Virus record (IMG/VR): IMGVR_UViG_3300037493_003821
Span: 1-58,277 of that record
Direction: 5' to 3' (one strand)
Source: a virus
Lineage: Duplodnaviria > Caudoviricetes
DNA length: 58,277 nucleotides
Position 1 is the first letter of the stretch, and every line of letters begins with the position of its first letter. Shown one piece after another: positions 15,201-53,663 of the stretch. Position numbers and translations under genes: made by a program. The notes beneath the pieces were generated by a model. It did not search any database. It was given only the letters and a program-made list of their open reading frames with translations, and was not told where the DNA came from.

Positions 15201-15738
15201 TATCGTTACCGTTGGCAGTATCGCGTATTTGCTTGGAGATAGGGACAAGCAGGACATTAATCCGCTCAGTAGCAACTTTGGAAAACTTGTTCTAAAAAGC
15301 GGCACAACCATAGATTTATCAATGGGGCGCGGGGCTTACGTCACACAGCTTGCAAGATACCTTTATGGGATGACGAAAGAGAACGGCAAGTATGTAAAAC
15401 GCGATAGGAATACAGGGCTTGCGCTTTTCCTCGCTGGCAGGTTCTCGCGTGAAATCAAAATGGCTACCGCGATTCTGGACGGGAAATCATACGACAAGAA
15501 ACTGGAAGGGCCGTTGGATTACTTCAAAGAGTCGTCGGTTCCGCTCGCATGGCGCGATCTGGATAAGGTGCTGGAAAAAGAGGGCATCACCCGTGGCGCA
15601 TTCCTGCAAATGCTCAACCTTCTCGGCATCACTTCGCGCATCCCCGATGAGAAAAAAAGCAGCGGAAGTTCAGTAAAAAGCATGGAGAGTCAAATCAAGC
15701 GCGAGATAAGAGATGACGTAGGTAAAATCGGTCTTTGA
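6268..15738 (+). CDS. Giant ejection / large polyvalent protein (3156 aa)
   Basis: Third ejection gene; N-terminal ELLDES x3; zincin-like HEQAGH at 11479-11496; coiled coils; repeated PTA(K/E)KPA linkers. Confidence 0.75.
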
Positions 15739-27982: not shown

Positions 27983-28089
27983 TTTGTGGTGATGTGGTGT
28001 TGTTGGTTGTTTAGTGCTGGGGTGAAAGGGTTTTGTGGTAGGTGTTCGGTGCTAGTTGTGCGGTCGGTGCGTCGGTGCTGGGTGCGCGT

Positions 28090-28308
28090 TCATCGTGTAG
28101 CCTCTTGTGCCTTTTTCTCTAGTGCGTCGGCAATCCTGTTGCGCATCTCGCGGCGTTTGCGGGTGTAGCGTTCGGGGGTTCCGCGCATTACTCCGTAGCT
28201 GTAAGCAAGCCCCGCCTGCGTTATCAGCTCAAAGGTGGAAACGTGGTTCACGTCGTCGTAATTGCATCGGAAAATTACGGCAAGGTTGTGCAGGTCGTGT
28301 GATTTCAT
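28090..28308 (-). CDS. Early hypothetical protein
   Basis: ATG preceded by a CA-rich leader. Confidence 0.55.
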   Translation of the reverse strand: MKSHDLHNLAVIFRCNYDDVNHVSTFELITQAGLAYSYGVMRGTPERYTRKRREMRNRIADALEKKAQEATR

Positions 28309-34291: not shown

Positions 34292-34620
34292 AGCTCAACT
34301 CCTTTCACTTCCGCGAGTGCGCGGGTTCTCGCCCGCCATGTGGCGGTGATTATGCCAAGCGTAAGCTCGCCTCGGTATCCAAACATCGGATCAACAATGC
34401 GAGCCAAGGCGTCGAGGTAATCATGGCTTTCTTCCACCGTCAGCCCCGCCTCCACATACGAGCAGATGTAGAGTAGTTCGGTGTCGAGGACGCGAACGAA
34501 TAGGTGTGAATCTTGGCTGTAATTATGTGACCAGCAAAGCTCTCCGCTGTGGGAGAAATGCACCGTCTCCGGCAGCATCTTGGCGAGGATGGATTTTAGT
34601 TGGTCGTCGGTGATGATCAT
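34288..34620 (-). CDS. Hypothetical protein
   Basis: Coupled ORF; ATWRARTRAL C-terminus. Confidence 0.55.
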   Translation of the reverse strand: MIITDDQLKSILAKMLPETVHFSHSGELCWSHNYSQDSHLFVRVLDTELLYICSYVEAGLTVEESHDYLDALARIVDPMFGYRGELTLGIITATWRARTRALAEVKGVEL

Positions 34621-34847
34621 AGGTTTTTGTCGAGTAGTGCGAGAATTGCGAACCAGTTTTCCTTGGTCTTGAAGTAGATTTCCATCGTTGTATCAACGAG
34701 GTAGATGTCTATGCCGAACAAAAGGGTATCATCTTTGTAGGCGTAGTAGCCCTTGAAATCTATCTGGTTGAACGTGAACATTACGTAGCCGTCTACATAG
34801 ACCTTCACCCTGCCGTTGTAGATTTTGAAGTCGTAGGTGTGGCTCAC
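34617..34847 (-). CDS. Hypothetical protein
   Basis: Coupled ORF, aromatic-rich. Confidence 0.55.
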   Translation of the reverse strand: MSHTYDFKIYNGRVKVYVDGYVMFTFNQIDFKGYYAYKDDTLLFGIDIYLVDTTMEIYFKTKENWFAILALLDKNL

Positions 34848-35035
34848 GGCTGTTGTGTTTTGGATTTTGCCTGCAACTTCGCCTCACGCATTTGCACCCG
34901 TTGCGCCCGGCGACCCTCCTGCATCTTGGCGACCCATACGAGCCGTTGTTCCTTGGTCATACCGCGCCAACGGATTTTCCCTCCATCGGAGTATGCTTTG
35001 ACTTTCCAGACGAGTTTGCAGCGAGGACATTTCAT
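34844..35035 (-). CDS. Small basic protein (MKCPRC...GGKIRW...TKEQR)
   Basis: ATG 35035 downstream of TTGACC-N17-TATTAC on the minus strand. Confidence 0.55.
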   Translation of the reverse strand: MKCPRCKLVWKVKAYSDGGKIRWRGMTKEQRLVWVAKMQEGRRAQRVQMREAKLQAKSKTQQP

Positions 35036-35047
35036 AAGTGGACGTAG

Positions 35048-35129
35048 GTAATATGATACTTTGCTAGTAAGGTCAAGAAGATTTATTGAAAAAAGATTTG
35101 ACGGATGAAACGGGCATGGCAGTATCCGT
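35048..35129. promoter_or_regulatory. Divergent promoter pair
   Basis: TTGACC (-) at 35071-35076; TTGACG (+) at 35098-35103 overlapped by the ACGGAT/ATCCGT inverted repeat. Confidence 0.45.
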
Positions 35130-35137
35130 GCAGATCG

Positions 35138-35725
35138 CAAGCCGGAATCAGCGGAGCGAGCAAAGAACTGATGCCTTGGGTAACTAAGGCTAAATACAGT
35201 TGAAACCCAAACCGCTGATTCCGGTTTGGGTTTCGTTTTTTACGGGACTCATCTGCAATCCCGTGAACCTCTGTCACGTTAGCGCAGGGGCGTGAAAAAG
35301 CGTTACCCGCAGCCCTGCAACATGGTGAAGGCGGCAATTCGCTAACAGGCCCGATATGCAGCAAGCTCTATCGGTTAAAGAGTCACGAAGGCTCTGAGTC
35401 CTGTATTGTGCGGCAAACCAAGAGCCGCGCCGTCCGTAACAACGAGTTGGCGCAGGGTAGCGATTGACCGCTGGCCTACCTACGGGTTGTCACAAACGGC
35501 CTTGCGTCTTACCACCGAGACGCCCGCACAATACAGCATTTGGAGTTGTCGCGTGAGAGTCTGTCAGTTGCCGACGCACGGCAAGGAGGGCGAAGCCAAA
35601 AGAATACCTGCTCCTGATACTGACTATCCCGAAAGGGATGATGACGGAAACTGCTGGTGATACCATTATACGGATTATCCTGCTACCGACATAGCCTGCC
35701 CCGTAACAGGGCTTGCTATGTCCGT
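35138..35725 (+). ncRNA. Putative large structured non-coding RNA
   Basis: No credible ORF; many stems, a 13-bp long-range helix, GNRA loops. Confidence 0.5.
35202..35241 (+). terminator. Intrinsic terminator with a competing antiterminator
   Basis: GAAACCCAAACCG / CGGTTTGGGTTTC 13-bp stem followed by GTTTTTT. Confidence 0.75.
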
Positions 35726-35876
35726 GTGCTGCGGTTCCTCCATTACCGGATCACCCTTCTACATCGGATACACCTGCTGCCCTGCAACCCTATAACCCTA
35801 CAACCCCTGATCCATTTCACCCCGATAAATGCTATTGACGTAATCGTTAAACCCCGTAAAAGGTTAACTCACGTAT

Positions 35877-36035
35877 ATGGGATTACCGTTTGACATCTTG
35901 ACCGGGGAATTGACTGATGAGCAGTTGAATGAACTGGCTGACGAGCAGATTCGGCGTGAGCGCGAGGATCGGTTTCTTGCTGCATTGGAGCAGGAGCGTG
36001 AAGCGCAATCTGCTGAACCTGTGTTCTCGATTTAA
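35877..36035 (+). CDS. Small acidic protein, 52 aa (not in ORF track)
   Basis: MGLPFDILTGELTDEQLNELADEQ...; follows TATTGACG at 35833. Confidence 0.5.
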   Translation: MGLPFDILTGELTDEQLNELADEQIRREREDRFLAALEQEREAQSAEPVFSI

Positions 36036-36038
36036 CGT

Positions 36039-36917
36039 ATGCCGTCACTTGCTGAAACGCAGGCGAAGGACAGCATCGGGCTTCCCCGATTCGAGGAACA
36101 GCGATGCGGGGCAATGGTGAATCATGTCAGAAAGAATCGGCTGCTGGAATCGGAACCGCCCGACTGCACGGGATGCGGTATCGTGATAGCTGGTGGAGGG
36201 AAGTATCTGTCATGGAGTTGGGTGTTATGCCGGAGACTACGGGAATTGGGGTGCGAGTTGCCGATACAGGTGTGGCACATAGGCGAGAAGGAGATGCCAG
36301 CATGGGCCGCAAAAAGTTTTGCAGAGATGGGGGTAGAAACGGTCAATGTGTTTCACGTTTTAAAGAAGCATCCGGTTCGGCAGATGAGCGGGTGGGTGTT
36401 GAAGAATTACGCTGTCACGCATAGCCCTTGGCGTCATGTCATGTTCATAGATGCTGACTGCTTTCCTGTGGTAAAGCCGGAAACGATATTCAAGTTGTGC
36501 GAGGGCAAGACGTTATTCTTCAATGATGTGAAGCCGTGTCATCCGAGTCGCTGGGGATACACCTATTGCGGGTTAGCTCCGGAAATCGAGTGGGAAACCG
36601 GGCAATACGTGGTGGACAAGGTTGAAGGGTGGATGGGGTTGCGGTGGACGGGCTGGTTGAACGAGCATACGGATTGCTGGTTTAACATGGTGCATGGCGA
36701 CAAAGGAACTTTCGAGTTGGGGTTTCGGATGAGCGGGGTTCCGTTGCTAATGGGGGATGCGCCGAAGTGGGGTGGATTCGGCATCGCGCATAGCTACAAA
36801 GGGGTTGCTGTTTTCGAGCATTGCATGGCTACGAAGCGTGGCGAGTTTCCGATGTTCCCGTGGTTGAAGAATCTGTTTAAGGAATGGGATGCGGTGAGTC
36901 TAGGGAAGCAGAAATAG
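36039..36917 (+). CDS. GT71 / Mannosyl_trans3 (MNN-like) glycosyltransferase
   Basis: GIVIAGG, LPIQVWH, K.YAV..S, FIDAD, ETGQYVVDK, HGDKGTF. Confidence 0.8.
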   Translation: MPSLAETQAKDSIGLPRFEEQRCGAMVNHVRKNRLLESEPPDCTGCGIVIAGGGKYLSWSWVLCRRLRELGCELPIQVWHIGEKEMPAWAAKSFAEMGVETVNVFHVLKKHPVRQMSGWVLKNYAVTHSPWRHVMFIDADCFPVVKPETIFKLCEGKTLFFNDVKPCHPSRWGYTYCGLAPEIEWETGQYVVDKVEGWMGLRWTGWLNEHTDCWFNMVHGDKGTFELGFRMSGVPLLMGDAPKWGGFGIAHSYKGVAVFEHCMATKRGEFPMFPWLKNLFKEWDAVSLGKQK

Positions 36918-38792
36918 CTACCGCCCGCTATACACACTCCGCTGCTGTGTCCCGTATTTCCCTGCCGGATTGACCTTTTTCAAGTAGTCCTCCGGGTTGA
37001 ACGGCTTTGCTTCCCGCTTCTGCTCATATCCTGCAAGCCCGTTACGCATTGCCAGATGAATCAACAGACAGGCGGCATCAGCGTGATCCGGCGAACGGCG
37101 AATCCGTTCCTTCATGTCCTTCTTGCGCTCAATCGTCATGCGCTTCTTCTCGTCTGTCCCCATTTTACGGGCGCAGAGTTGCTTGGTGACGTTCGACTGA
37201 CTATTCATCCCGCCGACCGCCCTATTCATCACCGCAAGACGGGTAGTGCCCCAAATCTGGCATACCATGTTGGCAAACATCTCACGGGCCTTGCGCTTCT
37301 CGCCGGGAATCACAACCCGATTCTCTGCGATGCCGGAGAACGAGATAGCGTGAACGGTGAGGCTGTAAGACTGCTCGCGGGCTTCGCGCTCGATGTGCTG
37401 CAAAAGGATACCGCCGTCTCCGGTTACGTCCAAGGCGAGTTCATGGCAGCTTCGGCTGCGGCATTGCTCGATTACTAGCTTGGCGATCTGCACTTCAAAG
37501 GCTTCTTTCGATTGCTTCGGGGCAAGCGGCATCGCGTCCCGCTCCAAGGAAATCATGCGCTTGTAGCGTGCATCAATGTCGTCCTCATGCCTGCCGGAAC
37601 CCATTTTCCCGAATTGAATGACACAGGGATCGCCTCCTGCGCGGAAGCCAAGGTCGAGTCCTGCAATGGTGGATAGGTTGTTGTCCTGCCACACGATTTT
37701 CTGGAATGCACCGCAAGACTCCATCAGCTTTCCCGAAAGAACCTTGTCCGACACATCTACGGAAGGCGGGAATCCGTAGAACTGCTTCCAATACATCGGC
37801 GCGTCCTCGCCTCCTGCATCCGAAAGAATCTCTTTGCGGAAGTTCTCGTTCATCAGTCGCGGGAACGGTATCTTGCCTTCCTCTTTGAAGTTTGGTGACT
37901 TTGCGCCGTTGAAGTAAAGGCATAGACCTGATGAAGTGGGCCAGCTATCCACTGTGTCCTTGTCCAGCGATTTCCAGCCATCGGGATACTTGTCACCGAA
38001 AGGTGCGGCATCAATATACATCGGGTCGCCTTCTTCGGGTGCATTGCCTAGTCCGATGAATTGGGAAAACGGATTCGTGTTCAAGTTCACGCGAGCCGTC
38101 AATACGCCAACGTCCATAAACGGCATTTCGTCGCAAATCCACACCACGTTCGCGTTTTTACGTCCTACAATGGATGCGACTACGTTCTTACCCTCCTGCC
38201 CCGGCTTGATGTTGATGCACTTGATAACGTCACGGAAATCCCGCTCTTTCACGCCTTCCTCATCCCGCACTTCTTCATCTAGGGTAATCAGGTGGAGGGA
38301 ATCAATGCGCTTGCCGATTTTGAACTTGTCAGCCTTGTGCAAGTCCTTCACCGCGCCCCACGTTCTCGATTCGCCTGCTTCCGCTGATGTGGTGGATAGG
38401 AATACGGATGTGTTGAAAGGTCGCGCCTTCCAGATGGTGTAGGCGTAGGCGGCTGATGCTTGGGTTTTGCCCGATGAACCACAACCCATCAACAGCAGAC
38501 GGCGGGAGAAGCAGAACCCCTTCGCCATGCGGAACAGCCAATGGTTGAGGATGCCGTCATTCTCAAACTGAATCGTCTCCGGCCATTGCTGCATCCAGCA
38601 AAGGATCAGGAACTCGTATTTGAGCGGGTGCTTGTGCGGGAGTGCGCCGAATGTCGCCAGCAGGATTTCGTATTCCGTAGCATCCCGCCCCTCCTGCCGC
38701 CGAATATCCGGCGACAGGAGTTCCATTTGCTGCTCGTAGAGCGTTTCAGCGGCGGCAGAAGGTCGCCAGAGCTTTGTGATGCACGGTATCAA
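36918..38792 (-). CDS. terL: Terminase large subunit
   Basis: GSSGKT, VWICDE, GLGN, nuclease GLDLG..GGD, RSPDHADA. Confidence 0.88.
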   Translation of the reverse strand: MIPCITKLWRPSAAAETLYEQQMELLSPDIRRQEGRDATEYEILLATFGALPHKHPLKYEFLILCWMQQWPETIQFENDGILNHWLFRMAKGFCFSRRLLLMGCGSSGKTQASAAYAYTIWKARPFNTSVFLSTTSAEAGESRTWGAVKDLHKADKFKIGKRIDSLHLITLDEEVRDEEGVKERDFRDVIKCINIKPGQEGKNVVASIVGRKNANVVWICDEMPFMDVGVLTARVNLNTNPFSQFIGLGNAPEEGDPMYIDAAPFGDKYPDGWKSLDKDTVDSWPTSSGLCLYFNGAKSPNFKEEGKIPFPRLMNENFRKEILSDAGGEDAPMYWKQFYGFPPSVDVSDKVLSGKLMESCGAFQKIVWQDNNLSTIAGLDLGFRAGGDPCVIQFGKMGSGRHEDDIDARYKRMISLERDAMPLAPKQSKEAFEVQIAKLVIEQCRSRSCHELALDVTGDGGILLQHIEREAREQSYSLTVHAISFSGIAENRVVIPGEKRKAREMFANMVCQIWGTTRLAVMNRAVGGMNSQSNVTKQLCARKMGTDEKKRMTIERKKDMKERIRRSPDHADAACLLIHLAMRNGLAGYEQKREAKPFNPEDYLKKVNPAGKYGTQQRSVYSGR

Positions 38793-39655
38793 GAGAGTTT
38801 TGGATACTTGGCATCATAGACCATGTGAACGAGTTTGCGCAGGGATTTTCCGTTGGGGTTGATGCCGATCTTGAACGCTTCGGCTGCAACACCGTCCAGC
38901 CCCATAGCCATGATCTGCTTGAACTCCGGCGTCATCTGCGGGGCAATGCCCTTTGGACGAACACCAGGGGCAGGGAGCGCGGGATGAGTCGGTGGCGGGG
39001 TTGGTGCGGCTGCGGGTGCTAAGGCAGCGGGCGCGGGTGCTTCGTAGAACACGGGTGCAGGAGCAGCAGCGACAACTGGCGCAGGAGCAGGGTCTAATTT
39101 TGTCGGGACAACCGCCTTCTCCGCTTTCGGAACCACGGTTCCACTTTTCGTCTCCGGCAGCGAAGTTGGCCAAAGGATTGAGAAGGTTCCCGGCGTGAAT
39201 GGAGCAAACCATGCACCCTTCAAGCTGTTCAAGAACTCAATCCAGCTTTCGGGTTCGTAGTGATCGCTGTGCTGCGTCACCTTCATGTTCGCGGCTGGCG
39301 GATTCTTCACGAAGTCACCGAACACACGCTGAAAAGCGGATTCCTGCTCGGCGGCAGTCATCTTCTTGTAAGCGTTCTTCACGGATTCCGCTTTGTCGAG
39401 GATCGCGGCATCGAGCTTGAGCTTGTAGTTCTTTGCCCCTTCAAAGTCGAGACGGTCAGCACAGGCTTTCATCGCTTCGTTGATGTCGCGGATAGCAACG
39501 TCATGCTCCTTGGCGGCAGCAGCAGTATCTACGAGGACGGCAGGGCTGAACACCAGCCACACGCCTTCCGTGTTTAGTTTCTTGATTTCCCGTGATGCCG
39601 TGGCGAGCGCGGCGATGTCCTGTTGGGTTTGAGCGAGTAATATGATATTTTTCAT
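38789..39655 (-). CDS. Hypothetical protein with Pro/Ala linker
   Basis: Overlaps the terL start; ATG at 39655. Confidence 0.6.
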   Translation of the reverse strand: MKNIILLAQTQQDIAALATASREIKKLNTEGVWLVFSPAVLVDTAAAAKEHDVAIRDINEAMKACADRLDFEGAKNYKLKLDAAILDKAESVKNAYKKMTAAEQESAFQRVFGDFVKNPPAANMKVTQHSDHYEPESWIEFLNSLKGAWFAPFTPGTFSILWPTSLPETKSGTVVPKAEKAVVPTKLDPAPAPVVAAAPAPVFYEAPAPAALAPAAAPTPPPTHPALPAPGVRPKGIAPQMTPEFKQIMAMGLDGVAAEAFKIGINPNGKSLRKLVHMVYDAKYPKLS

Positions 39656-39739
39656 GTGAGGCGGGAAAAGTGACAAAAATGAATATATAGTTCAATCAGT
39701 TATTGACGGATACGAAGTAAAAGGGTAATTGCGTAACAA

Positions 39740-39973
39740 GTGAGCAAGCTACCCACATACGAAGAAAAGCCGATCCCGACAAGGGTTCCGATTACCAGCT
39801 TCGGTGAGATCATTGATCCGCGCCTTGCGCTGACACAGTGTAAAAGCGGATTCTCGTTTGTGGTGGATACGCACAAGTTTCGGCAGCGGGTTATTGGGTA
39901 TGCTCGCAGACTTGGCATTGAAGTGAGAACCGCGAAGAACGGCACGGGAAGATTCGACATCTGGCGTATATGA
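39740..39973 (+). CDS. Small putative DNA-binding protein
   Basis: GFSFVV...YARRLG..VRT...IWRI; follows TATTGACG at 39701. Confidence 0.55.
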   Translation: MSKLPTYEEKPIPTRVPITSFGEIIDPRLALTQCKSGFSFVVDTHKFRQRVIGYARRLGIEVRTAKNGTGRFDIWRI

Positions 39974-40794
39974 AAACTATCTGGACGCACAACCATTTCA
40001 ACCTTGGCGACAATCTGCTGTTCCTGCATCTGCTTCGCTCGATTGCAAAGTCGCATCCCGATCATTGGTTCGTCCACTTCTGCGCAGGTTGTCATGCAGA
40101 TGCGCTGCGAGACATGACACGCGACATTCCTAACATCCTCATTGATACCTTCGACATGAGAAGCCTATGGGATAACGTGAAGGACGTTTCGATTGATACG
40201 TGGAAGAACGCAGGCGCGGGAAACGGCAAGTTGGGGTTTTGGGAGCGCAGTCAATTCCGTTGGGACTTCTCCAACTTCTACCTTGAGCATCACGCATGGA
40301 CGGCAAGACGGATGGGCTTTAAGTCGCCATTCGTGATCAAGGAGCATCTGCTTTTTGATTATCCGGGGCTGGAGAATAAAGGCGATTACGTGTTCGATTT
40401 CCTAATCATCAATTCGGAGCCGTGCAGCGGTCAATTCGGCCCCATGAAGCAGCACGGAAGCGGCTATCTGGATGAACTGATACTCGACTTGGCGAAAAGG
40501 CATCGCGTGATTACGACAAACAAAGTCGGCAATCTGCCATGCACCCGCGCACCATTTGTCGCTGATCTGAGCATCACGGAGATCGGTCAAATGTCCTCGC
40601 GCTGCAAACATCATCTTATGGTCGCATCCGGCCCTATGTGGCCCACCATCAACACGCACAACAACCACGACAGAAGCGGCAGGATGCGAATCGCGCTACT
40701 GGATAACGGGGAACAACTGAATCTGCCAGAAATCCATCAATGCGCGACAGTGGATGAAGCGCGACAACTCTTATGCAGGGAAGGACTGTTATGA
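39970..40794 (+). CDS. GT-B (GT9/GT11-like) glycosyltransferase-like protein
   Basis: N-terminal HFNLGD; C-terminal VASGPMW. Confidence 0.55.
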   Translation: MKTIWTHNHFNLGDNLLFLHLLRSIAKSHPDHWFVHFCAGCHADALRDMTRDIPNILIDTFDMRSLWDNVKDVSIDTWKNAGAGNGKLGFWERSQFRWDFSNFYLEHHAWTARRMGFKSPFVIKEHLLFDYPGLENKGDYVFDFLIINSEPCSGQFGPMKQHGSGYLDELILDLAKRHRVITTNKVGNLPCTRAPFVADLSITEIGQMSSRCKHHLMVASGPMWPTINTHNNHDRSGRMRIALLDNGEQLNLPEIHQCATVDEARQLLCREGLL

Positions 40795-41318
40795 CATACA
40801 AGGAATCTTTGACAAATCAGATGAACTCGTTCGCCCGCGATCCGCTTGCCCGCTTTGTCGGCTACGGACTGCTCAACGGCAAGGGCGGCAATGGAACGAT
40901 GAAGGAAATCACGAATGACAAAATCTACGAAGTCACGGTTGCCGAGAACCTGATGATGGGCATGGCAATGGGACTGGCGTTAAAGGGACTTCGGCCAATG
41001 GTGATACTTGAGCGATTCGACTTCATCGGCAACTGCTTCGATGCGCTGGTGAACCACATTGATAAAGCGGCAATCATCAGCCGTGGTCAATGGACTCCCG
41101 GAGTAATCGTTCGCGTGGTTGTCGGGAATAGCCGGAAGCCGCTATTCACTGGCGCAACTCATACACAGGATTTTACGGAAGCGTTTCGCAAGATACTTCG
41201 GATGCCCGTGTATCGGGTGACAACGCCTGACGAGGTTGCCGCTGGATACGAGGCAGCAATCGCAGATCAGAAGCAGAATCGCAGCACGATGATTGTAGAA
41301 CTGAAAGACAACCTATGA
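40791..41318 (+). CDS. TPP enzyme E1-beta / transketolase pyrimidine-binding domain only
   Basis: VAENLMMGMAMGLALKGLRP...FDF...LVNH, THTQD. Confidence 0.85.
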   Translation: MTYKESLTNQMNSFARDPLARFVGYGLLNGKGGNGTMKEITNDKIYEVTVAENLMMGMAMGLALKGLRPMVILERFDFIGNCFDALVNHIDKAAIISRGQWTPGVIVRVVVGNSRKPLFTGATHTQDFTEAFRKILRMPVYRVTTPDEVAAGYEAAIADQKQNRSTMIVELKDNL

Positions 41319-42355
41319 AGGCGGCAATCCTCACACAACTGAACTCGCCCTTAGAGATATGGGACATCGAACACGCATCAACTTCATTCGGCAAAACCTG
41401 CGCCACTGGACAGGTGCGCGTGGAAATGCTGATGAGCGGCATCTGCGGTAGCCAGCTACAAGAGATTGCAGGCAACAAGGGCAACGCTGGATTTATGCCG
41501 CACCTTTTAGGTCATGAGGGATGCGGGATAATCCGCGAAGTCGGGGCTGGCGTGAATGTGCAGATGCTTGGGAAGAAGGTTGTCTGCCACTGGCGCAAAG
41601 GCGAAGGCAGCGATGCCTATCTTACTGCCCGTTACGAGACGAGCGGCGGCAAAACCCTTGGAGGCGGTCACGTAACCACGCTCTGCGAATCAGCCGTGGT
41701 CAGCCGCAACCGTGTTACCGTTGTTGACGACGATGTTCCGATGGAGCTATGCGCGTTGCTCGGATGCGGACTCAGCACGGCACTAGGAACCGTGGAGCAG
41801 GAAGCCAAGTTGAAGTTTGGCGAGAGCATCCTGATCATCGGGTGCGGTGGTGTGGGGATGAATCTTATACAGGCAGCTAAACTATCTTGCGCATACCCGA
41901 TTGTCGCCTGTGACGTTAATGAGGATAAAAGGTCAGCGGCAATGTATAATCAAGCCACCCATTATATCAACATAAGCGAACCATTTGAGCATCCAGTGGA
42001 GAAGTATGACGTAATCGTGGATACTACGGGCAACATCGAAGCGATTGAAGGCGCGATACAGCGGCTCGCCAGTGGCGGCAGATTTATCATGGTCGGGCAA
42101 CCGAAGCCGGGGCAGTCCTATCGCGTGTTGTCTGCTCTCGATATGTTCTTTGGCGAGGGAAAGACGATTATCGCTACGCAGGGTGGCGGGTTTCGCCCTC
42201 ATCTTGATATTCCGCGCTACGTGAATCTGTGGCGTGCGGGGTTGCTGGATTTGACGGGAACGATTTCGCACAAGTTGCCGCTGGAAAAGATTAACGATGG
42301 AATAGACCTAGTTCGCAACGGATTGGCTGGCCGAGTAATGATTTCACTGAAATGA
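41315..42355 (+). CDS. Zn-dependent medium-chain alcohol dehydrogenase
   Basis: GICGSQ, GHEGCG, LLGCG, GCGGVG. Confidence 0.9.
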   Translation: MKAAILTQLNSPLEIWDIEHASTSFGKTCATGQVRVEMLMSGICGSQLQEIAGNKGNAGFMPHLLGHEGCGIIREVGAGVNVQMLGKKVVCHWRKGEGSDAYLTARYETSGGKTLGGGHVTTLCESAVVSRNRVTVVDDDVPMELCALLGCGLSTALGTVEQEAKLKFGESILIIGCGGVGMNLIQAAKLSCAYPIVACDVNEDKRSAAMYNQATHYINISEPFEHPVEKYDVIVDTTGNIEAIEGAIQRLASGGRFIMVGQPKPGQSYRVLSALDMFFGEGKTIIATQGGGFRPHLDIPRYVNLWRAGLLDLTGTISHKLPLEKINDGIDLVRNGLAGRVMISLK

Positions 42356-42984
42356 ACCTGCATACCAAAGAATCACTGATCGCCTTTGAAAACCGAATCA
42401 AGGGCTTATGGGAAGAAGGAGAACTGCCTTCCTTGTTGCACTTATGCGGCGGCAACGAGGACGAGCTGATCGAGATTTTCAAGCGCATCAATCACGACGA
42501 TTGGGTGTTCACCAGCCACCGAGCGCATTATCACTGTCTCCTAAAAGGGATGAGCGAGGAACAGCTTGAAAAGGAGATACGCGAGGATCGCTCCATGTTC
42601 GTGTTCAGCAAAGAACTGAAAATCTATCAGTCGGCAATCCTTGGCGGCACTTGCGGCATCGCGGCTGGCGTTGCTGCCGGAATCAAGCGGGCAGGCGGGA
42701 ATGAACGGGTGTGGTGCTTCCTCGGTGATGGTGCATACGAGAACGGGCATTTGTTTGAGGCCGCGCTATACGTTACAGGACATGAACTGCCATGCACGTT
42801 CATCATTGAGAACAATAACAGACAGGTGGATACCAGCATCAAGGACAGGCGCGGGGATAACTCGCTTTCCTTCTCCATGAACGCGCCATGTGTCGAGGAA
42901 TACTACTACGATCCAACGTATCCTCATGCGGGGAGCGGCTGTAAATCCATCATCACTTTCAATCGAACCACGCCTTTACTATGA
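42352..42984 (+). CDS. TPP enzyme E1-alpha-like subunit (short)
   Basis: HLCGGNE, SHRAHYH, GDGA...ENN TPP motif. Confidence 0.88.
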   Translation: MNLHTKESLIAFENRIKGLWEEGELPSLLHLCGGNEDELIEIFKRINHDDWVFTSHRAHYHCLLKGMSEEQLEKEIREDRSMFVFSKELKIYQSAILGGTCGIAAGVAAGIKRAGGNERVWCFLGDGAYENGHLFEAALYVTGHELPCTFIIENNNRQVDTSIKDRRGDNSLSFSMNAPCVEEYYYDPTYPHAGSGCKSIITFNRTTPLL

Positions 42985-43880
42985 AAACGCTCATCGGAAT
43001 AGTCTCATACGGTAACTTGCCCTTCCTGCAACTCGCTATTCGCGGCATCAAGGAAACACTGACAAAGGATGCCGATATTCTAGTGGTGATAGCCGATCCG
43101 AAGGACTTCAATATGGAGCATTGGTTGTCGGCTGGCATGATCAACTACATCAAAGATACCGAGAACATCGGGTTTGCTGGAAGTATCAACGACATCTTTG
43201 AGTATGCGTGGGTGAAGGGCGATTACGACAACGTGATCATAATGGGGAATGACGTTATCCCGTATCCCGGCGCACTCGATGCCATGATCAACTGCGCGGA
43301 AACAACCGATTGGGAATGGATATGCGCGTCACAGTTTGACTCGAAATCCCTTGTCGCTCGTTACCCCGAAGCCGCGCAATACTTCAAAGGCGAAACGCTT
43401 GAGTTCACAGACTTCGACGCAAGACCGTGGGAACTGCACAAGGAAATCCATGCACCGAACATTGAGCCGGATGCGCTGAAAGACGTTCGCAATCTCGCGC
43501 TATTCAAGCGTAGTGTATTCGACAAGACGGGATATACCGATGTGAACTTCTGGCCGAATGGTTATTTTGAGGATAACGATGCCGCGAGACGGGCAAACCT
43601 ATGCGGGGTGAAGGCGTGCGGACTCAGCGAGGCTGCATACTTTCACTTTTGGAGTCGCACTATCCATCAGGGCAGCGAGAGGAATCACGGCAAGTTCTTT
43701 GCCCGTAACAGTGGTCACTATGTCCATAAATGGGGCGGGCCTGTTGGCGGGGAGCGGTATTCACAGCCCTACGATGGTCGGGGATTCCTGTTGTCGCCTG
43801 ACATATTCCTTGATCCAGCGATGCGGATTGCAGACCGCAACGACGAGAGGACGATTATCCGGTATTGGTCAACGCTATGA
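42981..43880 (+). CDS. GT2 family glycosyltransferase
   Basis: IGIVSY, NIGFAGSIN, GND, YFEDND, HFWSRT. Confidence 0.85.
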   Translation: MKTLIGIVSYGNLPFLQLAIRGIKETLTKDADILVVIADPKDFNMEHWLSAGMINYIKDTENIGFAGSINDIFEYAWVKGDYDNVIIMGNDVIPYPGALDAMINCAETTDWEWICASQFDSKSLVARYPEAAQYFKGETLEFTDFDARPWELHKEIHAPNIEPDALKDVRNLALFKRSVFDKTGYTDVNFWPNGYFEDNDAARRANLCGVKACGLSEAAYFHFWSRTIHQGSERNHGKFFARNSGHYVHKWGGPVGGERYSQPYDGRGFLLSPDIFLDPAMRIADRNDERTIIRYWSTL

Positions 43881-44500
43881 TACCGAAAATCATTCATCAG
43901 ATTTGGATCGGGGATAAGATGATTCCTTCTAGGGAATTGAAGTGGTCGTCTGATATGGAGGAAATGAATCGCGGGTGGAAGCATCGGCTACACGGCAACG
44001 AGCTATTACAGCGATACAAGGACGATCCGTTCGTGAGATACATGGTCGCAAAGGGTGAGCGCATTGCCTTCATCACGGATCGCCTGCGCGTGCTACTGCT
44101 GCAAGAGGAAGGCGGAATCTACGTGGATGTGGACAGCCAGCCGATACGCCCATTTGACTCGATTGACGTATGGAATCGGTTCGACTTTGTAGCTGGATTG
44201 CGCTCGCCATTCCGAAAAGACGTAGCCCTTCATCGCGCTGTCCCGATTGTGGACAACACGTTAATGGCATCTGTTCCGAACGGCAGAATGATCGGGATTA
44301 TCGCTGCACTCTGGACACCCGCGCAAATTACTTCCGCCAACCACGCGATTAACGGTCATAGGACAGGGCTTGCAATTATCGAGAACTGCGATTACACGAC
44401 TTGTTTGCTTAACCATCGTTACATATATTGTGAGCAGAAATATCCAGAAACCTTGATATTACACGACACTCATAACCTTGGAACTTGGACTAAGAACTGA
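43877..44500 (+). CDS. GT32 (Och1-like DxD) glycosyltransferase
   Basis: IPKIIHQIWIG, DRLR..LL..EGGIYVDVD. Confidence 0.88.
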   Translation: MIPKIIHQIWIGDKMIPSRELKWSSDMEEMNRGWKHRLHGNELLQRYKDDPFVRYMVAKGERIAFITDRLRVLLLQEEGGIYVDVDSQPIRPFDSIDVWNRFDFVAGLRSPFRKDVALHRAVPIVDNTLMASVPNGRMIGIIAALWTPAQITSANHAINGHRTGLAIIENCDYTTCLLNHRYIYCEQKYPETLILHDTHNLGTWTKN

Positions 44501-45076: not shown

Positions 45077-47594
45077 TTCACCCGCAGACACGACAATACT
45101 CAGCGTTCAAACAGTTGACTCCAAGGGCAAAGCTCCGAAACGCAGGGTAGCCACTACTACCGCTGCATGGTCGGCATACGTGAAGGCGCGTAACGCCAAC
45201 ATGAAACGGGATCAGCGGTTTGCGGACATTGCAGGCATCTATGCCGGATTCCCGCCAACGCCACCAGCGACACAGGAGGCAAACGGGCAGGCGGATATGC
45301 CCAACATCAACACCAAGCAGTTTCAAGCTAAGGTGGACACCTACCGCTCAACGTGGATGGCTATGGCGGCACAGGGAGACGGGTATGCGGAGGTAATGGC
45401 TGAACACGACGACTCGATGGAAGCGGAACGGCGCGGCAAAGTTATCACGGAAGAAATGAACTCGGCAATCCGCCGATGGGACAACCCTGATTTCGAGCAG
45501 GGCAATCAGTATATCCTAGAATCGGCAGCGCGAGATACTCAGATGGGACTTTTCGGTATCGGCATCGCGTTCTTCCCTGATTCCATAGACTTCCGGTTCA
45601 AGGTGATTCCGACGCGCAGGGTGTTACTCCCGGAAGGAACCCGCCTTTCAATGGACAACTGTTCAGCAATGTGGATCGAGGATCAGATTTCAGTGACAGA
45701 CCTTTACGGCAGATGCGGCATGGCTGGATGGAACGAGAAATCAATCCTCCGTAATCTCTATGAACACGTAGAGCTAACGTCGCAAACCAGCCAGCGCAGG
45801 TTCACATACAGCGAATGGGTCAATCAGATTCGCAACAATGACGCATGGCTTTTAAGCGAGTTTCTTCCGATTCGACTGATTCATATGTTCACCAAGGAGT
45901 TTGACGGGAGCATCACGCAAGTCACATTTACTGACCTATTCGGCACAGGACGCGCCGACGAGACAACAAAGGACGAGGATGCCAACTCGTTCATCTACGA
46001 AAGAACCAAAATAGCGAAACGCTGGCAGCAGATTATCGTTCCGTTTGCGGACAATGCAGGGCCGGAAAACGATTGGCACGGAGTAAAGGGATTTGGCGAT
46101 CTCATCTTTGACGGATGCCACTTGAACAACCTGATGTTCAACAGGGGTGCTACGGGAGCCGTGCTGACGAATATGCTGATGTTCAAGGGAATGTCGGAGT
46201 CAGACACGCAAAAGCTGGATCAGATCACCCTATCAAACCTTGGAATTATGGCTCCGGGATTGGAAATGGAACAGCAACGGTTTCAAGCGGACATCGAAGG
46301 TGCGCTGTCTATTGTCGGCATGGGTAGTCAGTTGATTGCAGAGAATACCCGCATCAGCCCGCAGAACGACAAAACGACAACAGGGGAGCAGCCAACAGCA
46401 ACACAGGTAACAGCGGACAGGGCAGACAGGGCGCAGTTCTCCACGTTGCAGATTATGGTGTATCGGTCAGTCGGACTCGATGTGCTTTTCAGCGAGATGT
46501 ATCGCAGGCTGGCGCAACCAGCGAGCAAGTATCCCGAATCATGGGGCGGCGGCGAAGTCGCAAAACGGTTCCGCGACAGATGCAAGAAGCGCGGGATTCC
46601 AGAGGGCGAATTGATGGATGTGAAGTGCGTTCGCGCCAACCGCAACATTGGCAGCGGCGACTTGTCGCTCGACCTGATGAAAGGCAAAGAACTTATGGGC
46701 GTAGCAACTCCAGGCAGAGGGCAGCTAAACGCCAGAAAGGAAATCGTAGCCGCGCTCAAGGGAGTGGAAATGGTATCGGCATTCGTGGAGGAAGAAGAAC
46801 CGCAGCCCGGACAGGATGCAGTTCAGATTGATAACGAGAACAACCTGATTCATCTTGGTCAGGTTCCGATTGCCTACGGATTCCAAGATCAGGAGCGTCA
46901 CGTATCAAAGCACATGGAATTGCTCTCGCAAGCATCGCAGGTGGTTCCGCAAATCATGGAGCAAGGTGTCAACCCGCAGAACCTAGAAGGCGCGAAAAAG
47001 CTGAACATTCTCATGGACGCAGGAGTGCAACACGTAGGACAGCACGTTCAACTCATGGCTTCAATTCCACGCGCAGGCAATCAACCCGCGCTCTACGAGC
47101 AAATGGTTGCCGCAATCACCAAGCAACTGCACAACCTGCAACAGTTGAGCACATCGCTGGCAGAGGACATTCAGAAAGCCGACGTTCAGCAGCAGCCGCA
47201 GGCATCGCCGGAGATGATGAAGGCGCAGCAGGAGATGCAGATTAAACAGGCGCAAGCTCAACAGGAAATGGCACTCAAGGATCAGGCGCACAAAGCCAAG
47301 CTCGGCAATCTTGCGGTGACAACACAAGCGCGGACTCAAATGAAGTTGTCGGATCATCAAATGACTCAGGCGCAGAAGGACGAACAGAAGCGGCAAGACT
47401 TGCTTCACCAACAGGCACAGGGAGCGCAAGACCTGACTTTTGGAGCGGCAAAAGCGCAACAGGATATTTTGGTAAAGCAAAAGTCCGATGAGATGAAACT
47501 CGCGGCAGAAGCCATTTCGACACGGCAAAACATCGCCAGAAAAGAAGCAATGAGCAAGCCAAAGAAAACCAAGAAACCAAAGAAAACCGAATAA
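45063..47594 (+). CDS. Portal protein (podovirus type, long C-terminal barrel)
   Basis: 843 aa, PTATQV motif, Q-rich coiled C-terminus, first gene of the head module. Confidence 0.75.
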   Translation: MSDNNSPADTTILSVQTVDSKGKAPKRRVATTTAAWSAYVKARNANMKRDQRFADIAGIYAGFPPTPPATQEANGQADMPNINTKQFQAKVDTYRSTWMAMAAQGDGYAEVMAEHDDSMEAERRGKVITEEMNSAIRRWDNPDFEQGNQYILESAARDTQMGLFGIGIAFFPDSIDFRFKVIPTRRVLLPEGTRLSMDNCSAMWIEDQISVTDLYGRCGMAGWNEKSILRNLYEHVELTSQTSQRRFTYSEWVNQIRNNDAWLLSEFLPIRLIHMFTKEFDGSITQVTFTDLFGTGRADETTKDEDANSFIYERTKIAKRWQQIIVPFADNAGPENDWHGVKGFGDLIFDGCHLNNLMFNRGATGAVLTNMLMFKGMSESDTQKLDQITLSNLGIMAPGLEMEQQRFQADIEGALSIVGMGSQLIAENTRISPQNDKTTTGEQPTATQVTADRADRAQFSTLQIMVYRSVGLDVLFSEMYRRLAQPASKYPESWGGGEVAKRFRDRCKKRGIPEGELMDVKCVRANRNIGSGDLSLDLMKGKELMGVATPGRGQLNARKEIVAALKGVEMVSAFVEEEEPQPGQDAVQIDNENNLIHLGQVPIAYGFQDQERHVSKHMELLSQASQVVPQIMEQGVNPQNLEGAKKLNILMDAGVQHVGQHVQLMASIPRAGNQPALYEQMVAAITKQLHNLQQLSTSLAEDIQKADVQQQPQASPEMMKAQQEMQIKQAQAQQEMALKDQAHKAKLGNLAVTTQARTQMKLSDHQMTQAQKDEQKRQDLLHQQAQGAQDLTFGAAKAQQDILVKQKSDEMKLAAEAISTRQNIARKEAMSKPKKTKKPKKTE

Positions 47595-50499: not shown

Positions 50500-51933
50500 A
50501 TGTCTGAAAGTATCATAGGAAGCATCGGCTGCTCTGCCGACATCTCAAATCATTTCTCGTTGGCCCAACATTATTTGGATCCGATATTCAAACGTCTTAA
50601 CGGACGTAATGGCGTGTGGGATGGGATGATTCCTGACGGCGGGCGTTTCCCCGTTGGATCGGGCTTTTCGTCCCGTGTCACTACACTCGCTCAACAGCGT
50701 CTCGGCTATGAGGACTTGAACCTCTGGCAGGACATGGTGGGCTTGCAATCCGATTGCGCTGTTACCTGCGACCCTCCTAACAAGGTGGTTGATCCCGGCA
50801 ACGCGAATCATCAATGGTATCGCTTGATGAACATCTCCTACAATACTACCCCGTATTGCTTGGAATCCATGTTCGCAGCATCGCTTTCGCTCGATCAGCA
50901 GATTGAGCAAATCTATAAAGACCTCATGTATATCCGCTCGGATGTCATGGATGAGTTCTACCGCAACAATCAGGTTGGACTTTCCGCCTTCCGCTGGATG
51001 GGCTACGACCCTGCCAGCACTCAGGCTGGTTCTCCGGCCCTGCTTAATGATCAATGGCGTTTTGCCACGGATGCAAATGGCATGGTGAACACAAAATACA
51101 TCATCCTCGATCCGACGGTGAACCCGAACAGCATTGCGCTGCTCTCGACTGATATTCTCAATCGCGTCCGTAACTACGGCATCCCGATGGGAACTTTCAA
51201 TCCAGAAGGCGAAATCAAGCTCATTACCGATTACGAAACATTCAGCGCATTGCCGCTGTATGACACCAATCGCCGCGAGGACAATCGCTTCCGTCAGCCC
51301 GTTTCGCTCAATCCCGAATACGTCGCAACCACGCATTATGCTGGTTACGCGCTCAAGAATGACTACTTCGCGCTGCGCTACAACTGGACGCTGACTGATC
51401 CACTCTATCCAGCGGGTGTTCTCAAGCGCGTCTATCAGTGGAGCAACCGAGCAATCAGCGAAGGCTGCTTCTCGCAAACCAATCAGGAATACATTGATGC
51501 AGATTTCAGCCTGCACATTCCTTGGAGCGACATGGATTCAGTCTTTGAAACGCAGAATGGCGAACAGCCGCTCTCCGCTGGTTCTGGCGCAAACTTCGCC
51601 GCTACTGCCTCTCCTTGGGATGGCACATGGCGTTGGATTAACGAAGTGAACGAAGTCACCCCATGCAACCAAGACCGCAACAAGGGTTACTGGCGCATGG
51701 TGTTGAAGAAAGCCGCAAAGCCCCTGATGTTTGGTCAGCGTGGTCATGTGGTTCTCTCACGCCGCTTCCCGCTTCGTGGTGTCACCCGCGCTTGTGCAAC
51801 GCTGCAAGTCAGCACAACCGGATCGGTGGATTGCACGAACAACTGTCCCGCACAGGACTTCTACCCACCAGCCCTTGTTACACGCTACACCTGTGGCGGT
51901 TGGAACAGCGGTGGTTCCTGCGCCTCGGCCTAA
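50500..51933 (+). CDS. Major capsid protein
   Basis: 477 aa after the scaffold, followed by a strong hairpin; called on position and size only. Confidence 0.7.
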   Translation: MSESIIGSIGCSADISNHFSLAQHYLDPIFKRLNGRNGVWDGMIPDGGRFPVGSGFSSRVTTLAQQRLGYEDLNLWQDMVGLQSDCAVTCDPPNKVVDPGNANHQWYRLMNISYNTTPYCLESMFAASLSLDQQIEQIYKDLMYIRSDVMDEFYRNNQVGLSAFRWMGYDPASTQAGSPALLNDQWRFATDANGMVNTKYIILDPTVNPNSIALLSTDILNRVRNYGIPMGTFNPEGEIKLITDYETFSALPLYDTNRREDNRFRQPVSLNPEYVATTHYAGYALKNDYFALRYNWTLTDPLYPAGVLKRVYQWSNRAISEGCFSQTNQEYIDADFSLHIPWSDMDSVFETQNGEQPLSAGSGANFAATASPWDGTWRWINEVNEVTPCNQDRNKGYWRMVLKKAAKPLMFGQRGHVVLSRRFPLRGVTRACATLQVSTTGSVDCTNNCPAQDFYPPALVTRYTCGGWNSGGSCASA

Positions 51934-52686: not shown

Positions 52687-53663
52687 TGTCCGCTGGAACT
52701 AATCGCAGTATCCCGACTCCCGTAAGCGTCCCGAACGGGGGCACGGGATTAGCGGCTGGCACAAGCGGGGGTATCCCTGCTTACACCGGAGCTACAACCA
52801 TAGCCTCATCCGGGGTTCTTGCTGCTTACGAGCTTGTCATCGGCGGCGGTGCGGGCGTTGCGCCGTCCACGACTACCACGGGTGCGGGTGTTCTTGTAGC
52901 GAACATCAACCGCCCTGTATTCGCCACGACTGTCACGGCAGGAGCTTCAACACTAACTCTCACGGTCACAAGCGCGGCCACGCAGGAGTTCACCGGAACC
53001 AATTACCATTTAGTAAGGATGCCAAGTGTTGATACGCTAGTGGCAGGGTGGGCGACCCTGTTCATCAACAAGAGCACCGACACAATAACGATTCGGGCCA
53101 GCGATGATTCAAGTATTATTACAATTCTCTCCGCAGGGCAGTCGGTGTCATTGGTCTGCAACGACATAGCAGGCGGCACCACGGCAGCGGCTTGGGATGT
53201 GGTGGGGCTTTCGCCGCGACTCTGGCTCGCCGCGAAGAAAAGCGGCACACAGACATTGACGGATGGCTCATCCGATGTAGCCACACCATTCCAAACGATT
53301 CTTGGCGGCACCATGCAAAGCGCATGGAACACCGCAACAGGTGAGTTCACCGCGCCGATAAACGGACTTCTTAAAATCAGCGGTTTGGCACAGGGAGAAT
53401 CAGCGGCTTCTGGCGGCGGCTATCAAGAGGGATACTACGAGCTAAGAATCAAGCGCAGCGGCAGTGTGATTGCCTATCTGGTGGCCTGCGTCCCTGCTTA
53501 TAACGATAATTCATCTTACTACTCCTTGAATGAGAATCCCAATAGCTGCGTCGCCGTCACCGCTGGCGACGTTCTCTCCGTCGTTAGCTCATGGAGCGAA
53601 AGCAGCGGAATATCATTAAACCTCAACGTTGAGTCTCAAATTCAACTCGAATACCTACAATGA
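52686..53663 (+). CDS. Fibre protein with C1q-like tip
   Basis: VPNGGTG, T/G/A-rich shaft, GEFTAPINGL..I. Confidence 0.6.
   Translation: MSAGTNRSIPTPVSVPNGGTGLAAGTSGGIPAYTGATTIASSGVLAAYELVIGGGAGVAPSTTTTGAGVLVANINRPVFATTVTAGASTLTLTVTSAATQEFTGTNYHLVRMPSVDTLVAGWATLFINKSTDTITIRASDDSSIITILSAGQSVSLVCNDIAGGTTAAAWDVVGLSPRLWLAAKKSGTQTLTDGSSDVATPFQTILGGTMQSAWNTATGEFTAPINGLLKISGLAQGESAASGGGYQEGYYELRIKRSGSVIAYLVACVPAYNDNSSYYSLNENPNSCVAVTAGDVLSVVSSWSESSGISLNLNVESQIQLEYLQ

Follow-up and report, generated by a model that had tools for sequence, protein, structure and literature searches.

Few large structured RNAs are known from phages, and their functions are mostly open. The closest described counterparts of the element considered here include GOLLD and ROOL, which we take to be Rfam families RF01998 and RF03087. 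Both are large 'ornate' orphan RNAs, often borne by phages and prophages, and are reported to form homo-oligomers (PMC12286853). Our element lies at 35138–35725 in the 58,277-bp genome of a freshwater phage (virus record IMGVR_UViG_3300037493_003821, a complete genome with direct terminal repeats); 'the window' denotes this entire stretch. We think it likely that the sequence from 35133 to about 35750 is a + strand non-coding RNA gene, comprising a switch leader (module 1) and a structured RNA that depends on read-through of that leader (module 2), which are exchanged as a cassette. Like GOLLD and ROOL, the element is a phage-borne, non-coding, multi-helix RNA of several hundred nucleotides with conserved loops, found in lake samples, and module 2 has the size and architecture of the ornate orphan RNAs (more than 400 nt, multiple covarying helices, non-coding). 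It differs from GOLLD and ROOL in matching neither model, even at E ≤ 10, across 34900–36100, and in having a self-pairing terminator leader and an exchangeable slot.

The leader has parallels of a different kind. As in the trp, pyr and T-box attenuators, a GC-rich stem with a U run faces a mutually exclusive upstream helix that consumes the 3′ arm of the terminator, and both structures covary. Unlike those attenuators, the leader has no recognised leader peptide or sensor domain, its regulated product would be an RNA rather than an operon, and in three of the five leader types described below the complementarity extends no further than the terminator loop. According to PMC4825925, termination in phage P4 results from pairing of the CI RNA with seqA and seqC in the leader from which it comes, and the short IsrK RNA of Gifsy-1 acts on its own read-through isoform. 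These phage leaders resemble ours in their same-strand self-complementarity and in a terminator that separates short and long isoforms; in them, as would be the case here, termination or activity is settled by RNA–RNA pairing (PMC4825925). As in P4 CI and P1 c4, same-strand complementary leader segments covary between types, here five types with one pair per leader. There is, however, no homology to P4 CI or IsrK, one complementary pair stands in place of seqA/B/C, and the downstream product is a structured RNA. A further parallel comes from the pT181 attenuators, which, according to PMC3753616, become orthogonal through changes in the loop and upper stem and form variant families that do not cross-react. 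In both systems a free 5′ leader segment would set the fate of the terminator, with specificity in the loop and upper stem (compare the 5 × 5 duplex matrix below). By contrast with pT181, where the counter-transcript comes from the opposite strand, the partner here lies on the same RNA, and a crude consensus scan calls no opposite-strand promoter.

Two assignments were rejected. The best of four sub-threshold Rfam hits at E ≤ 10 within 34900–36100 is to the P22 sar RNA (RF00262; 28.6 bits, E 0.0026, 35198–35267, − strand), but it falls below the gathering score of 43, lies on the wrong strand and covers essentially the terminator stem-loop. A riboswitch class does not fit either: the complex fold comes after the terminator switch, a distant relative (contig G001, below) has other genes downstream than the window does, and further relatives swap the RNA and keep the genes. 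A scan with all 4227 models of Rfam 15 gave no match at the gathering threshold in the whole window or in six related loci, in agreement with the initial annotation, which could assign the element to no known family. Module 2 is thus a new structured RNA family without a match in Rfam 15, with an unusual, swappable, self-pairing leader. A literature search on large structured phage RNAs brought up known classes only and no description of the module 2 RNA, which does not establish its absence from that literature.

The leader and its competing folds

Module 1 and the block in front of it consist of the following features.

35098–35125, + strand: putative RNA promoter read from the sequence, with −35 TTGACG at 35098–35103, a 16-nt spacer and an extended −10 TGgCAGTAT at 35117–35125
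35133–35241, + strand: module 1 leader, about 105 nt, with a 5′ segment, a GUAA-capped hairpin, an intrinsic terminator and a U run (folding z = −8.0 on the + strand)
35138–35154, + strand: 5′ arm of the antiterminator, pairing with 35212–35228 (17 bp, one G-U; pair probability 0.98)
35166–35201, + strand: central hairpin, AACUG/CAGUU plus GCCUUGG-GUAA-CUAAGGC (probability 0.98–1.00)
35202–35241, + strand: intrinsic terminator from a terminator scan, with a 13-bp stem (35202–35214 with 35222–35234), the 7-nt loop CUGAUUC and U6 at 35236–35241

The initial annotation, made from the sequence, had described a structured element behind a terminator/antiterminator switch. Every complementary segment that it listed is present where it was placed, as judged from the sequence, inverted repeats, the minimum-free-energy (MFE) fold and helix probabilities, and comparison with homologues backs the 17-bp antiterminator, the 13-bp terminator and the GUAA hairpin. 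Attenuation control is borne out in that the terminator and the competing 5′ helix both covary and the layout is common to five sequence types. The terminator scan reports a 13–14-bp stem with seven G-C pairs and a TTTTTT tail, and the partner of the antiterminator arm (35212–35228) corresponds to the top, loop and 3′ arm of this terminator.

The comparative evidence comes from an alignment of six distinct leader sequences. In the antiterminator, 5 of the 17 pairs are compensated in one relative (L031) and 95% of alignment cells are paired, a level reached by none of 500 shuffles; slid controls give 0–1 compensations. The 13 pairs of the terminator are 100% paired across the six sequences, with one compensatory and one one-sided change. 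Because the terminator compensation breaks one outer pair of the antiterminator, both folds appear to be constrained. In the central hairpin, two pairs changed one-sidedly, through U-G. In the window type the antiterminator is the MFE structure, at −47.4 kcal/mol compared with −34.7 kcal/mol when the 5′ end is held single-stranded.

Complementarity between the 5′ segment and the terminator loop recurs in five sequence types, represented by the window, L031/L046, L003, L013 and L062. The leaders of L003, L013 and the more distant L062 cannot be aligned with that of the window, yet all three have a 5′ segment with complementarity to their own terminator loop. The cognate duplexes of the five types, in the order just given, have energies of −35.0, −26.9, −18.9, −21.1 and −20.4 kcal/mol, and the fractions of 1000 shuffles that equal them are 0.000, 0.003, 0.012, 0.005 and 0.109.

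The folded RNA of module 2

Behind the leader lies a larger fold that is conserved in two homologues, L046 and L062, from other phage contigs, each about 70% identical to the window RNA. L046 was found by a scan with the conserved hairpin of module 1 and has an L031-type leader; the sequence behind that leader is 71% identical to window 35131–35368. L062 was found through a conserved 19-mer of a module 2 loop. L046 is part of the 27-kb contig G001, a distant relative of the window phage (50–85% identity by tblastx, with long syntenic blocks) in which the RNA has another genomic position and, as in the window, neighbours the start of a divergent gene; the RNA is therefore a self-contained module. 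The features supported by alignment with these homologues, together with an insertion seen in the window, are as follows.

About 35257–35727, + strand: module 2, a large folded RNA of about 470 nt (620 nt with the leader), defined with the two distant homologues
35257–35652, + strand: module 2 core, closed by helix P1 (35257–35266 with 35642–35652)
35269–35274 with 35284–35289, + strand: helix P2
35290–35294 with 35346–35350, + strand: helix P3
35299–35302 with 35340–35343, + strand: helix P3a, three of four pairs compensatory
35307–35310 with 35331–35334, + strand: helix P4, with a 20-nt loop in which 19 bases are the same in all three sequences
35351–35356 with 35369–35374, + strand: helix P5, five of six pairs compensatory
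35383–35556, + strand: expansion domain, 174 nt, helix probabilities 0.83–0.99
35563–35567 with 35620–35624, + strand: helix P7, all five pairs compensatory
35569–35573 with 35579–35583, + strand: helix P8
35585–35588 with 35611–35614, + strand: helix P9
35625–35640, + strand: P10, a GNRA hairpin with loop GAAA, GUGA or GCGA across the three sequences
35688–35722, + strand: 3′ hairpin, made of P11 (GACAUAGC/GCUAUGUC) and inner P12 (GCCC/GGGC), probability 0.95–0.99

Covariation in this core is clear. In a hand-made comparison of the window with L046, 60 of 62 pairs in 12 helices are kept: 18 are compensatory, 4 changed one-sidedly (all to G-U), 38 are identical and 2 are broken, compared with 0–2 compensatory and 44–48 broken pairs in slid controls. 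Block A (35257–35377) by itself has 26 pairs, 10 of them compensatory, with 98.7% of cells paired; slid controls give 0–1 and none of 500 shuffles matches it. Among the individual helices proposed initially, CCGATA/TATCGG (five compensatory pairs), TTGCCG/CGGCAA (two compensatory pairs) and ATCCC-GAAA-GGGAT (its GNRA loop kept as GAAA, GUGA and GCGA) are supported, and GACATAGC/GCTATGTC is supported by the distant homologues. Three others were not supported. The 3′ strand of GTTAGCG/CGCTAAC pairs with 35299–35302 instead, with three compensatory changes; GGC-GAA-GCC becomes G.G in homologues; and GGACTCA/TGAGTCC has no equivalent there.

The expansion domain is a long rod (5 + 10 + 13 bp) with three hairpins, at 35427–35453, 35454–35477 and 35504–35523. 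Its perfect 13-bp helix (35401–35413 with 35524–35536; pair probability 0.98) and the hairpins that it closes are present much as first described, but they lack comparative support, as the homologues do not have the 174-nt stretch; L046 and L062 hold about 28–55 unrelated nucleotides in its place. The comparison thus indicates that the 13-bp-closed three-hairpin junction is a lineage-specific insertion. Folding of 35395–35540 gives z = −3.8 on the + strand and −4.6 on the − strand.

At the other end, the 3′ hairpin is kept in L046 and L062, with two one-sided G-U changes, and may act as an end-protecting stem. Two sequence observations touch this hairpin. The conserved 5′ end of the RNA, AUCGCAAGCC (35134–35143), is complementary at 9 of 10 positions to the invariant GGCUUGCUAU of the hairpin (35710–35719), a relation also present in L046 and absent from L062. 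The motif CCCCGTAA(C/A)AGG occurs in the hairpin at 35699–35710, in the spacer of a second promoter block at 35852–35863 and in one of the alternative cargoes described below (type B, L004).

Fold strength sets the element apart from the rest of the genome. The 588 nt from 35138 to 35725 fold beyond the background of 100 dinucleotide shuffles (z = −6.64 for the + strand, −5.42 for the − strand). When 582 intervals of 150 nt were scanned along the + strand of the whole 58-kb genome (mean z −0.16, standard deviation 1.23), the three lowest values all fell in the element, at 35101–35250 (−5.51), 35601–35750 (−4.57) and 35401–35550 (−4.54), and 35201–35350 ranked seventh (−3.03). Folded alone, 35245–35400 (z −0.85) and 35540–35752 (z −1.8) are unremarkable. 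Outside the element, the strongest-folding intervals are 50901–51050 (z −3.75) and 28001–28150 (z −3.72).

The same region shows a non-coding signature. As first proposed, it has no convincing open reading frame (ORF): its 12 ORFs of 25–93 aa have no Pfam match at E ≤ 1, their sole PHROG match at E ≤ 1 has E 0.17, and stops interrupt all six frames of the window's core. Substitutions between the window and L046 are spread evenly over codon positions (18/18/21, p 0.89), compared with 64/39/111 in the neighbouring mannosyltransferase-like (GT) gene at similar divergence, which excludes coding in any of the six frames. Together with the 18 compensatory pairs, this evenness upholds the initial description of a large phage non-coding RNA. 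In every cassette type, hairpins with GNRA or UNCG loops and stems of 5 bp or more are confined to the + strand (two in the window, three in type A and four in type C), against a genome background of 0.45 per kb on the + strand and 0.26 per kb on the − strand; when stems of 4 bp are admitted as well, the window cassette has one tetraloop hairpin on the − strand.

Searches for further copies returned the same small set. A covariance model of block A (R1) matches only the window, L046 and L062 loci; it found no copy in the other cassette types (20 sources) and none in 3 + 151 genomes of the phylum with the closest GT homologues, a sample that is not evidence of absence. A two-block pattern and two protein-style scans with the antisense translation again returned L046 and L062 only. 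DNA searches gave no match for the intergenic region and cassette types B and C among 50,697 GenBank phage records, nor for the window cassette among 72,556 plasmids. Short probes gave mostly chance hits: the 16-mer GTCCTGTATTGTGCGG had four chance matches in viral contigs with no wider similarity, 17 of 18 new loci found with a 20-mer of the module 1 hairpin were unrelated coding sequence, and the 19-mer of the conserved loop had four matches, two of them fortuitous and within coding DNA.

Cassette exchange, proposed mechanism and rival readings

Modules 1 and 2 fill a slot whose contents differ among related phages, and this modular make-up, the filling of the slot with other RNAs in other strains and the status of the junction as an insertion are all features that the initial annotation missed. 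We assembled 18 related loci, 11 of them viral contigs found through the GT gene (93–95% protein identity) and 7 metagenome contigs found through a conserved 25-mer of the promoter region, with at least one contig present in both collections (L032 equals L004). The flanks are conserved in these loci, at 93–100% identity for window 35040–35139 and 85–95% for 35753–35900, and the RNA promoter block is conserved in 18 of 18; divergence starts at 35140. Module 2 of the window (35250–35752) is present in none of the 18. In its place, between breakpoints 35140 and 35754, relatives carry one of three unrelated cargoes, one further locus being truncated.

35141–35753, + strand: exchangeable cassette, modules 1 and 2, between conserved flanks
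Cargo type A: about 355 nt, 6 loci
Cargo type B: about 830 nt, including a + strand ORF, 3 loci
Cargo type C: about 400 nt, 8 loci

Several leader forms (the first 100 nt after the start) exist, and they reassort independently of cargo. A contig of run X2 joins 35140 to 35754 through 508 other letters, a second allele in a sample that also holds the window form. The window form itself occurs in contigs of two lake-water studies, one spanning 35111–35783 with a single difference (at 35764) and the other spanning 35131–36128 with eight, all at or beyond 35735; 35141–35734 is thus identical in contigs of two other studies, in runs whose flanking genes differ by about 1.6–2%. Such block exchange between conserved flanks implies that 35141–35753 moves as one unit, younger or more constrained than its surroundings. 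Variation within types A, B and C was too little for covariation analysis (5, 10 and 4 substitutions in 465, 533 and 394 nt), and RNAalifold counts on the cassette types were set aside as method-biased.

The alternative cargoes have features of their own. Type B (L004, 2665–3255) holds about 350 nt of structured non-coding RNA and a + strand ORF that ends inside the second promoter block; the ORF has 196 aa when read from its first ATG and 104 aa when read from an internal one. Type C (L003 1555–1600, and L013) holds a T-arm-like GGGTTCAATTCCC hairpin and a UUCG hairpin, in which ARAGORN finds no tRNA or tmRNA.

How might such a locus work? We propose that a short RNA would be released when the leader folds as a terminator (13-bp stem plus U6). 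In the competing fold, the 5′ end of the leader would pair over 17 bp with the terminator loop and 3′ arm, dissolving the terminator so that polymerase continues; module 2 would be made only by this read-through. Because the 5′ arm is synthesised first, read-through is the expected default. Termination would then need a factor that occupies the 5′ arm, in which case the locus would yield only the short leader. If this factor were an RNA carrying the loop sequence, from the same or a co-infecting phage, the system would be type-specific. The TTGACG block reads as a sigma-70-type promoter with a putative transcription start near 35132, and the transcript probably ends in or beyond a C-rich tract at 35746–35823.

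Several points weigh against this account, in addition to the antisense frames taken up below. First, the TTGACG noted initially belongs to a block conserved in all related loci, but a consensus scan (crude match) of both strands of 34500–36500 called 0 promoter-like sites; the RNA promoter is not called because its −10 matches at only 3 of 6 positions. Contigs of two RNA runs (X19 and X20) leave 34843–35842 uncovered, which is uninformative either way on expression. Second, the antiterminator is the MFE structure only in the window type; L031, L003, L013 and L062 retain the terminator in theirs. Outside the window type the 5′ segment matches mainly the terminator loop, and the L062 cognate duplex is not significant and cross-reacts with the similar L013 type. 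The cis-switch may therefore not be general to the other leader types, and a loop-confined match leaves room for a pseudoknot or an intermolecular kissing contact. Finally, L046 and L062 are near-identical in the core, so that covariation in module 2 amounts to a two-lineage comparison; the structure was partly derived from the alignment also used to test it; and comparison with the homologues lends little or no support to the 174-nt insertion, to 35245–35256 and to the sequence beyond 35652.

A possibility that we hold tentatively, and that extends the cis-acting switch more than it excludes it, is that module 1 is a lock and key made of RNA, type-specific and acting in trans. An RNA bearing the loop, namely a short terminated or processed leader from the same or a co-infecting phage, would bind the nascent 5′ segment and force termination, resulting in feedback control or in RNA-based exclusion among phages of the same type, with the leader types as orthogonal specificities. 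Consistent with this idea, phages that are 93–95% identical in a flanking protein carry four co-varying pairs of 5′ segment and loop, and related types occur in more distant phages (the L031 type in L046, a fifth type in L062). The cognate duplex is the strongest in four of five rows of the cross matrix, and in three types the match is confined to the 6–10-nt terminator loop, which is reminiscent of kissing-loop systems. A YUNR tetranucleotide, a motif presumed to be significant, is present in each of the five loops. PMC4825925 (P4 CI RNA and IsrK) and PMC3753616 (orthogonal pT181 attenuators) provide precedents. Other observations fit the trans mode less well: once a short RNA is released, its 5′ segment would already cover its loop in cis; there is cross-reaction between the L013 and L062 types (−22.0 versus −20.4 kcal/mol); Rfam gives no match to C4, IsrK or similar RNAs; and no integrase or repressor was found among 30 ORFs compared with Pfam, 10 of which were also compared with PHROGs, and 10 large ORFs compared with PHROGs, most ORFs having no match of any kind. 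Within the genome, the cassette has no significant complementarity to the rest of the sequence. Two + strand intragenic sites complementary to the left arm and loop of the terminator, at 53375–53388 (14 nt; E 0.11, the best value) and 45211–45222 (12 nt, E 1.7), are probably chance.

More broadly, and more speculatively still, the locus could be a modular RNA device in which orthogonal lock-and-key leaders gate interchangeable large RNA cargoes, serving competition between co-infecting phages or against host defence, with types kept diverse by frequency-dependent selection. If so, module 2 would be a new functional class of RNA (a ribozyme, a protein decoy or a self-assembling particle) rather than a passive leader. 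An allele-rich, young and mobile pattern is what defence, counter-defence and exclusion loci show, and points to an arms race at the RNA level. A natural set of leaders, mostly without cross-reaction, is also of interest for RNA circuit engineering.

It is improbable that the element is a long cis-acting 5′ leader, riboswitch-like or a processive-antitermination RNA, of the 52-aa ORF (orf52) and GT operon downstream. It lies on the same strand and upstream of these genes and contains a terminator/antiterminator, and its complex fold, in which one loop is nearly invariant, could offer a binding site. Nevertheless, the switch lies upstream of the complex fold and so could not report its state during transcription, and orf52 is separated from the RNA by a second conserved promoter block (35835). 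Relatives, moreover, retain orf52 and the GT gene but swap the RNA for unrelated cargo, and in G001 some 7 kb separate the RNA from the GT homologue, and the genes that come after the RNA are oppositely oriented.

Very unlikely in our judgement, though built on observations that count against an RNA gene, is the proposal that the conserved sequence is or was a − strand protein gene, as called in the G001/G002 lineage, with the window as a decayed copy whose folds are incidental. Antisense ORFs of 255 aa (G001, equal to L066; 5687–6454, − strand) and 233 aa (L062, from 557 onwards) exist, with an ATG that overlaps the stop of the upstream ORF (ATGA). None of 2000 dinucleotide shuffles reaches 255 open codons, and nine protein clusters of 183–255 aa correspond to the frame, one at 37% identity in an alignment row that was not compared residue by residue. 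The C-termini of the nine clusters are unrelated, however, none has a Pfam domain, and protein collections show only those variants whose frame happens to be open. The even codon-position spread between the window and L046, set against the GT control, also speaks against the proposal, as do the differences between L046 and L062 (10/7/10 by position; 5 synonymous and 16 non-synonymous codons), indels of 1, 5, 25 and 174 nt, and the stops that interrupt each of the window's six frames. Coding constraint could not produce the 18 compensatory pairs. Partial back-translation of the nine antisense 'proteins' fully determined 8–15 pairs, and slid controls were similar.

Least probable of all is action as DNA (a replication origin, recombination hotspot or single-strand initiation signal, the structured single-stranded origin of the initial annotation): the locus is intergenic between divergent promoters and clearly a recombination-prone slot, and its inverted repeats fold on both strands (− strand z −5.4), but the cassette has no iterons (34500–36500 contains a single tandem repeat, of 8-nt units, which lies in the conserved flank), G+C content does not dip locally in the composition profile, GNRA/UNCG loops and one-sided changes through G-U intermediates point to the + strand, the promoter is followed by a terminator with a U run, and helices kept by compensatory change while primary sequence is free form the pattern of a folded RNA.

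Genome setting

The element occupies an 840-nt gap between a leftward gene start at 35035 and the start of the rightward 52-aa ORF at 35877. Three further features border it.

35043–35075, − strand: putative leftward-operon promoter, TTGACC-N17-TATTAC, read from the sequence, kept in 18 of 18 relatives and not called by the consensus scan
35746–35823, + strand: tract rich in C and poor in G that relatives share (of the 78 nt at 35753–35830, 32 are C and 7 are G)
35835–36917, + strand: downstream unit from the ORF list, with a second TTGACG promoter block, the 52-aa ORF (35877–36035) and the mannosyltransferase-like gene (36039–36917)

The first gene of the leftward operon begins at ATG 35035, and its putative promoter would stand back to back with that of the RNA. 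The C-rich tract is the second highest C-over-G peak on the + strand of the genome and may serve as a Rho-loading site or an unstructured spacer. An 8-nt tandem repeat, CCCTACAA, is present in 3.4 copies at 35780–35806, inside this tract and between the RNA and the second promoter. Copies of CCCCGCC(A/G), which may be a lineage-specific promoter or regulator motif, stud the intergenic region around the RNA in L046 (380–1200) and L062 (3858–4470, oriented) and are absent around the window's RNA.

The mannosyltransferase-like gene (Pfam PF11051, E 1.2e-19), conserved at 93–95% in the 11 viral contigs, opens a block of sugar-metabolism genes (36039–44500) that also includes transketolase-like, zinc alcohol dehydrogenase and GT2 genes. 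Its closest genomic homologues are 35–40% identical; six of the seven loci found are in cyanobacterial metagenome-assembled genomes (MAGs), several of them filamentous, and the seventh in an Ekhidna MAG. This similarity offers a weak hint of a cyanobacterial host. To our knowledge, cyanobacteria have no Rho; if the host is cyanobacterial, the reading of the C-rich tract as a Rho site fails.

No tRNA or tmRNA was found in the window or in six related loci, and a PHROGs scan of 10 neighbouring ORFs gave no match except a methylase. Family matches among the window's proteins are few: a DnaB-type helicase, a PDDEXK nuclease, an MT-A70 methyltransferase, tail-fibre domains and sugar-modifying enzymes. 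A 3156-aa ORF at 6268–15738, without a Pfam or PHROG match at the thresholds used, probably encodes a giant virion or injected protein.

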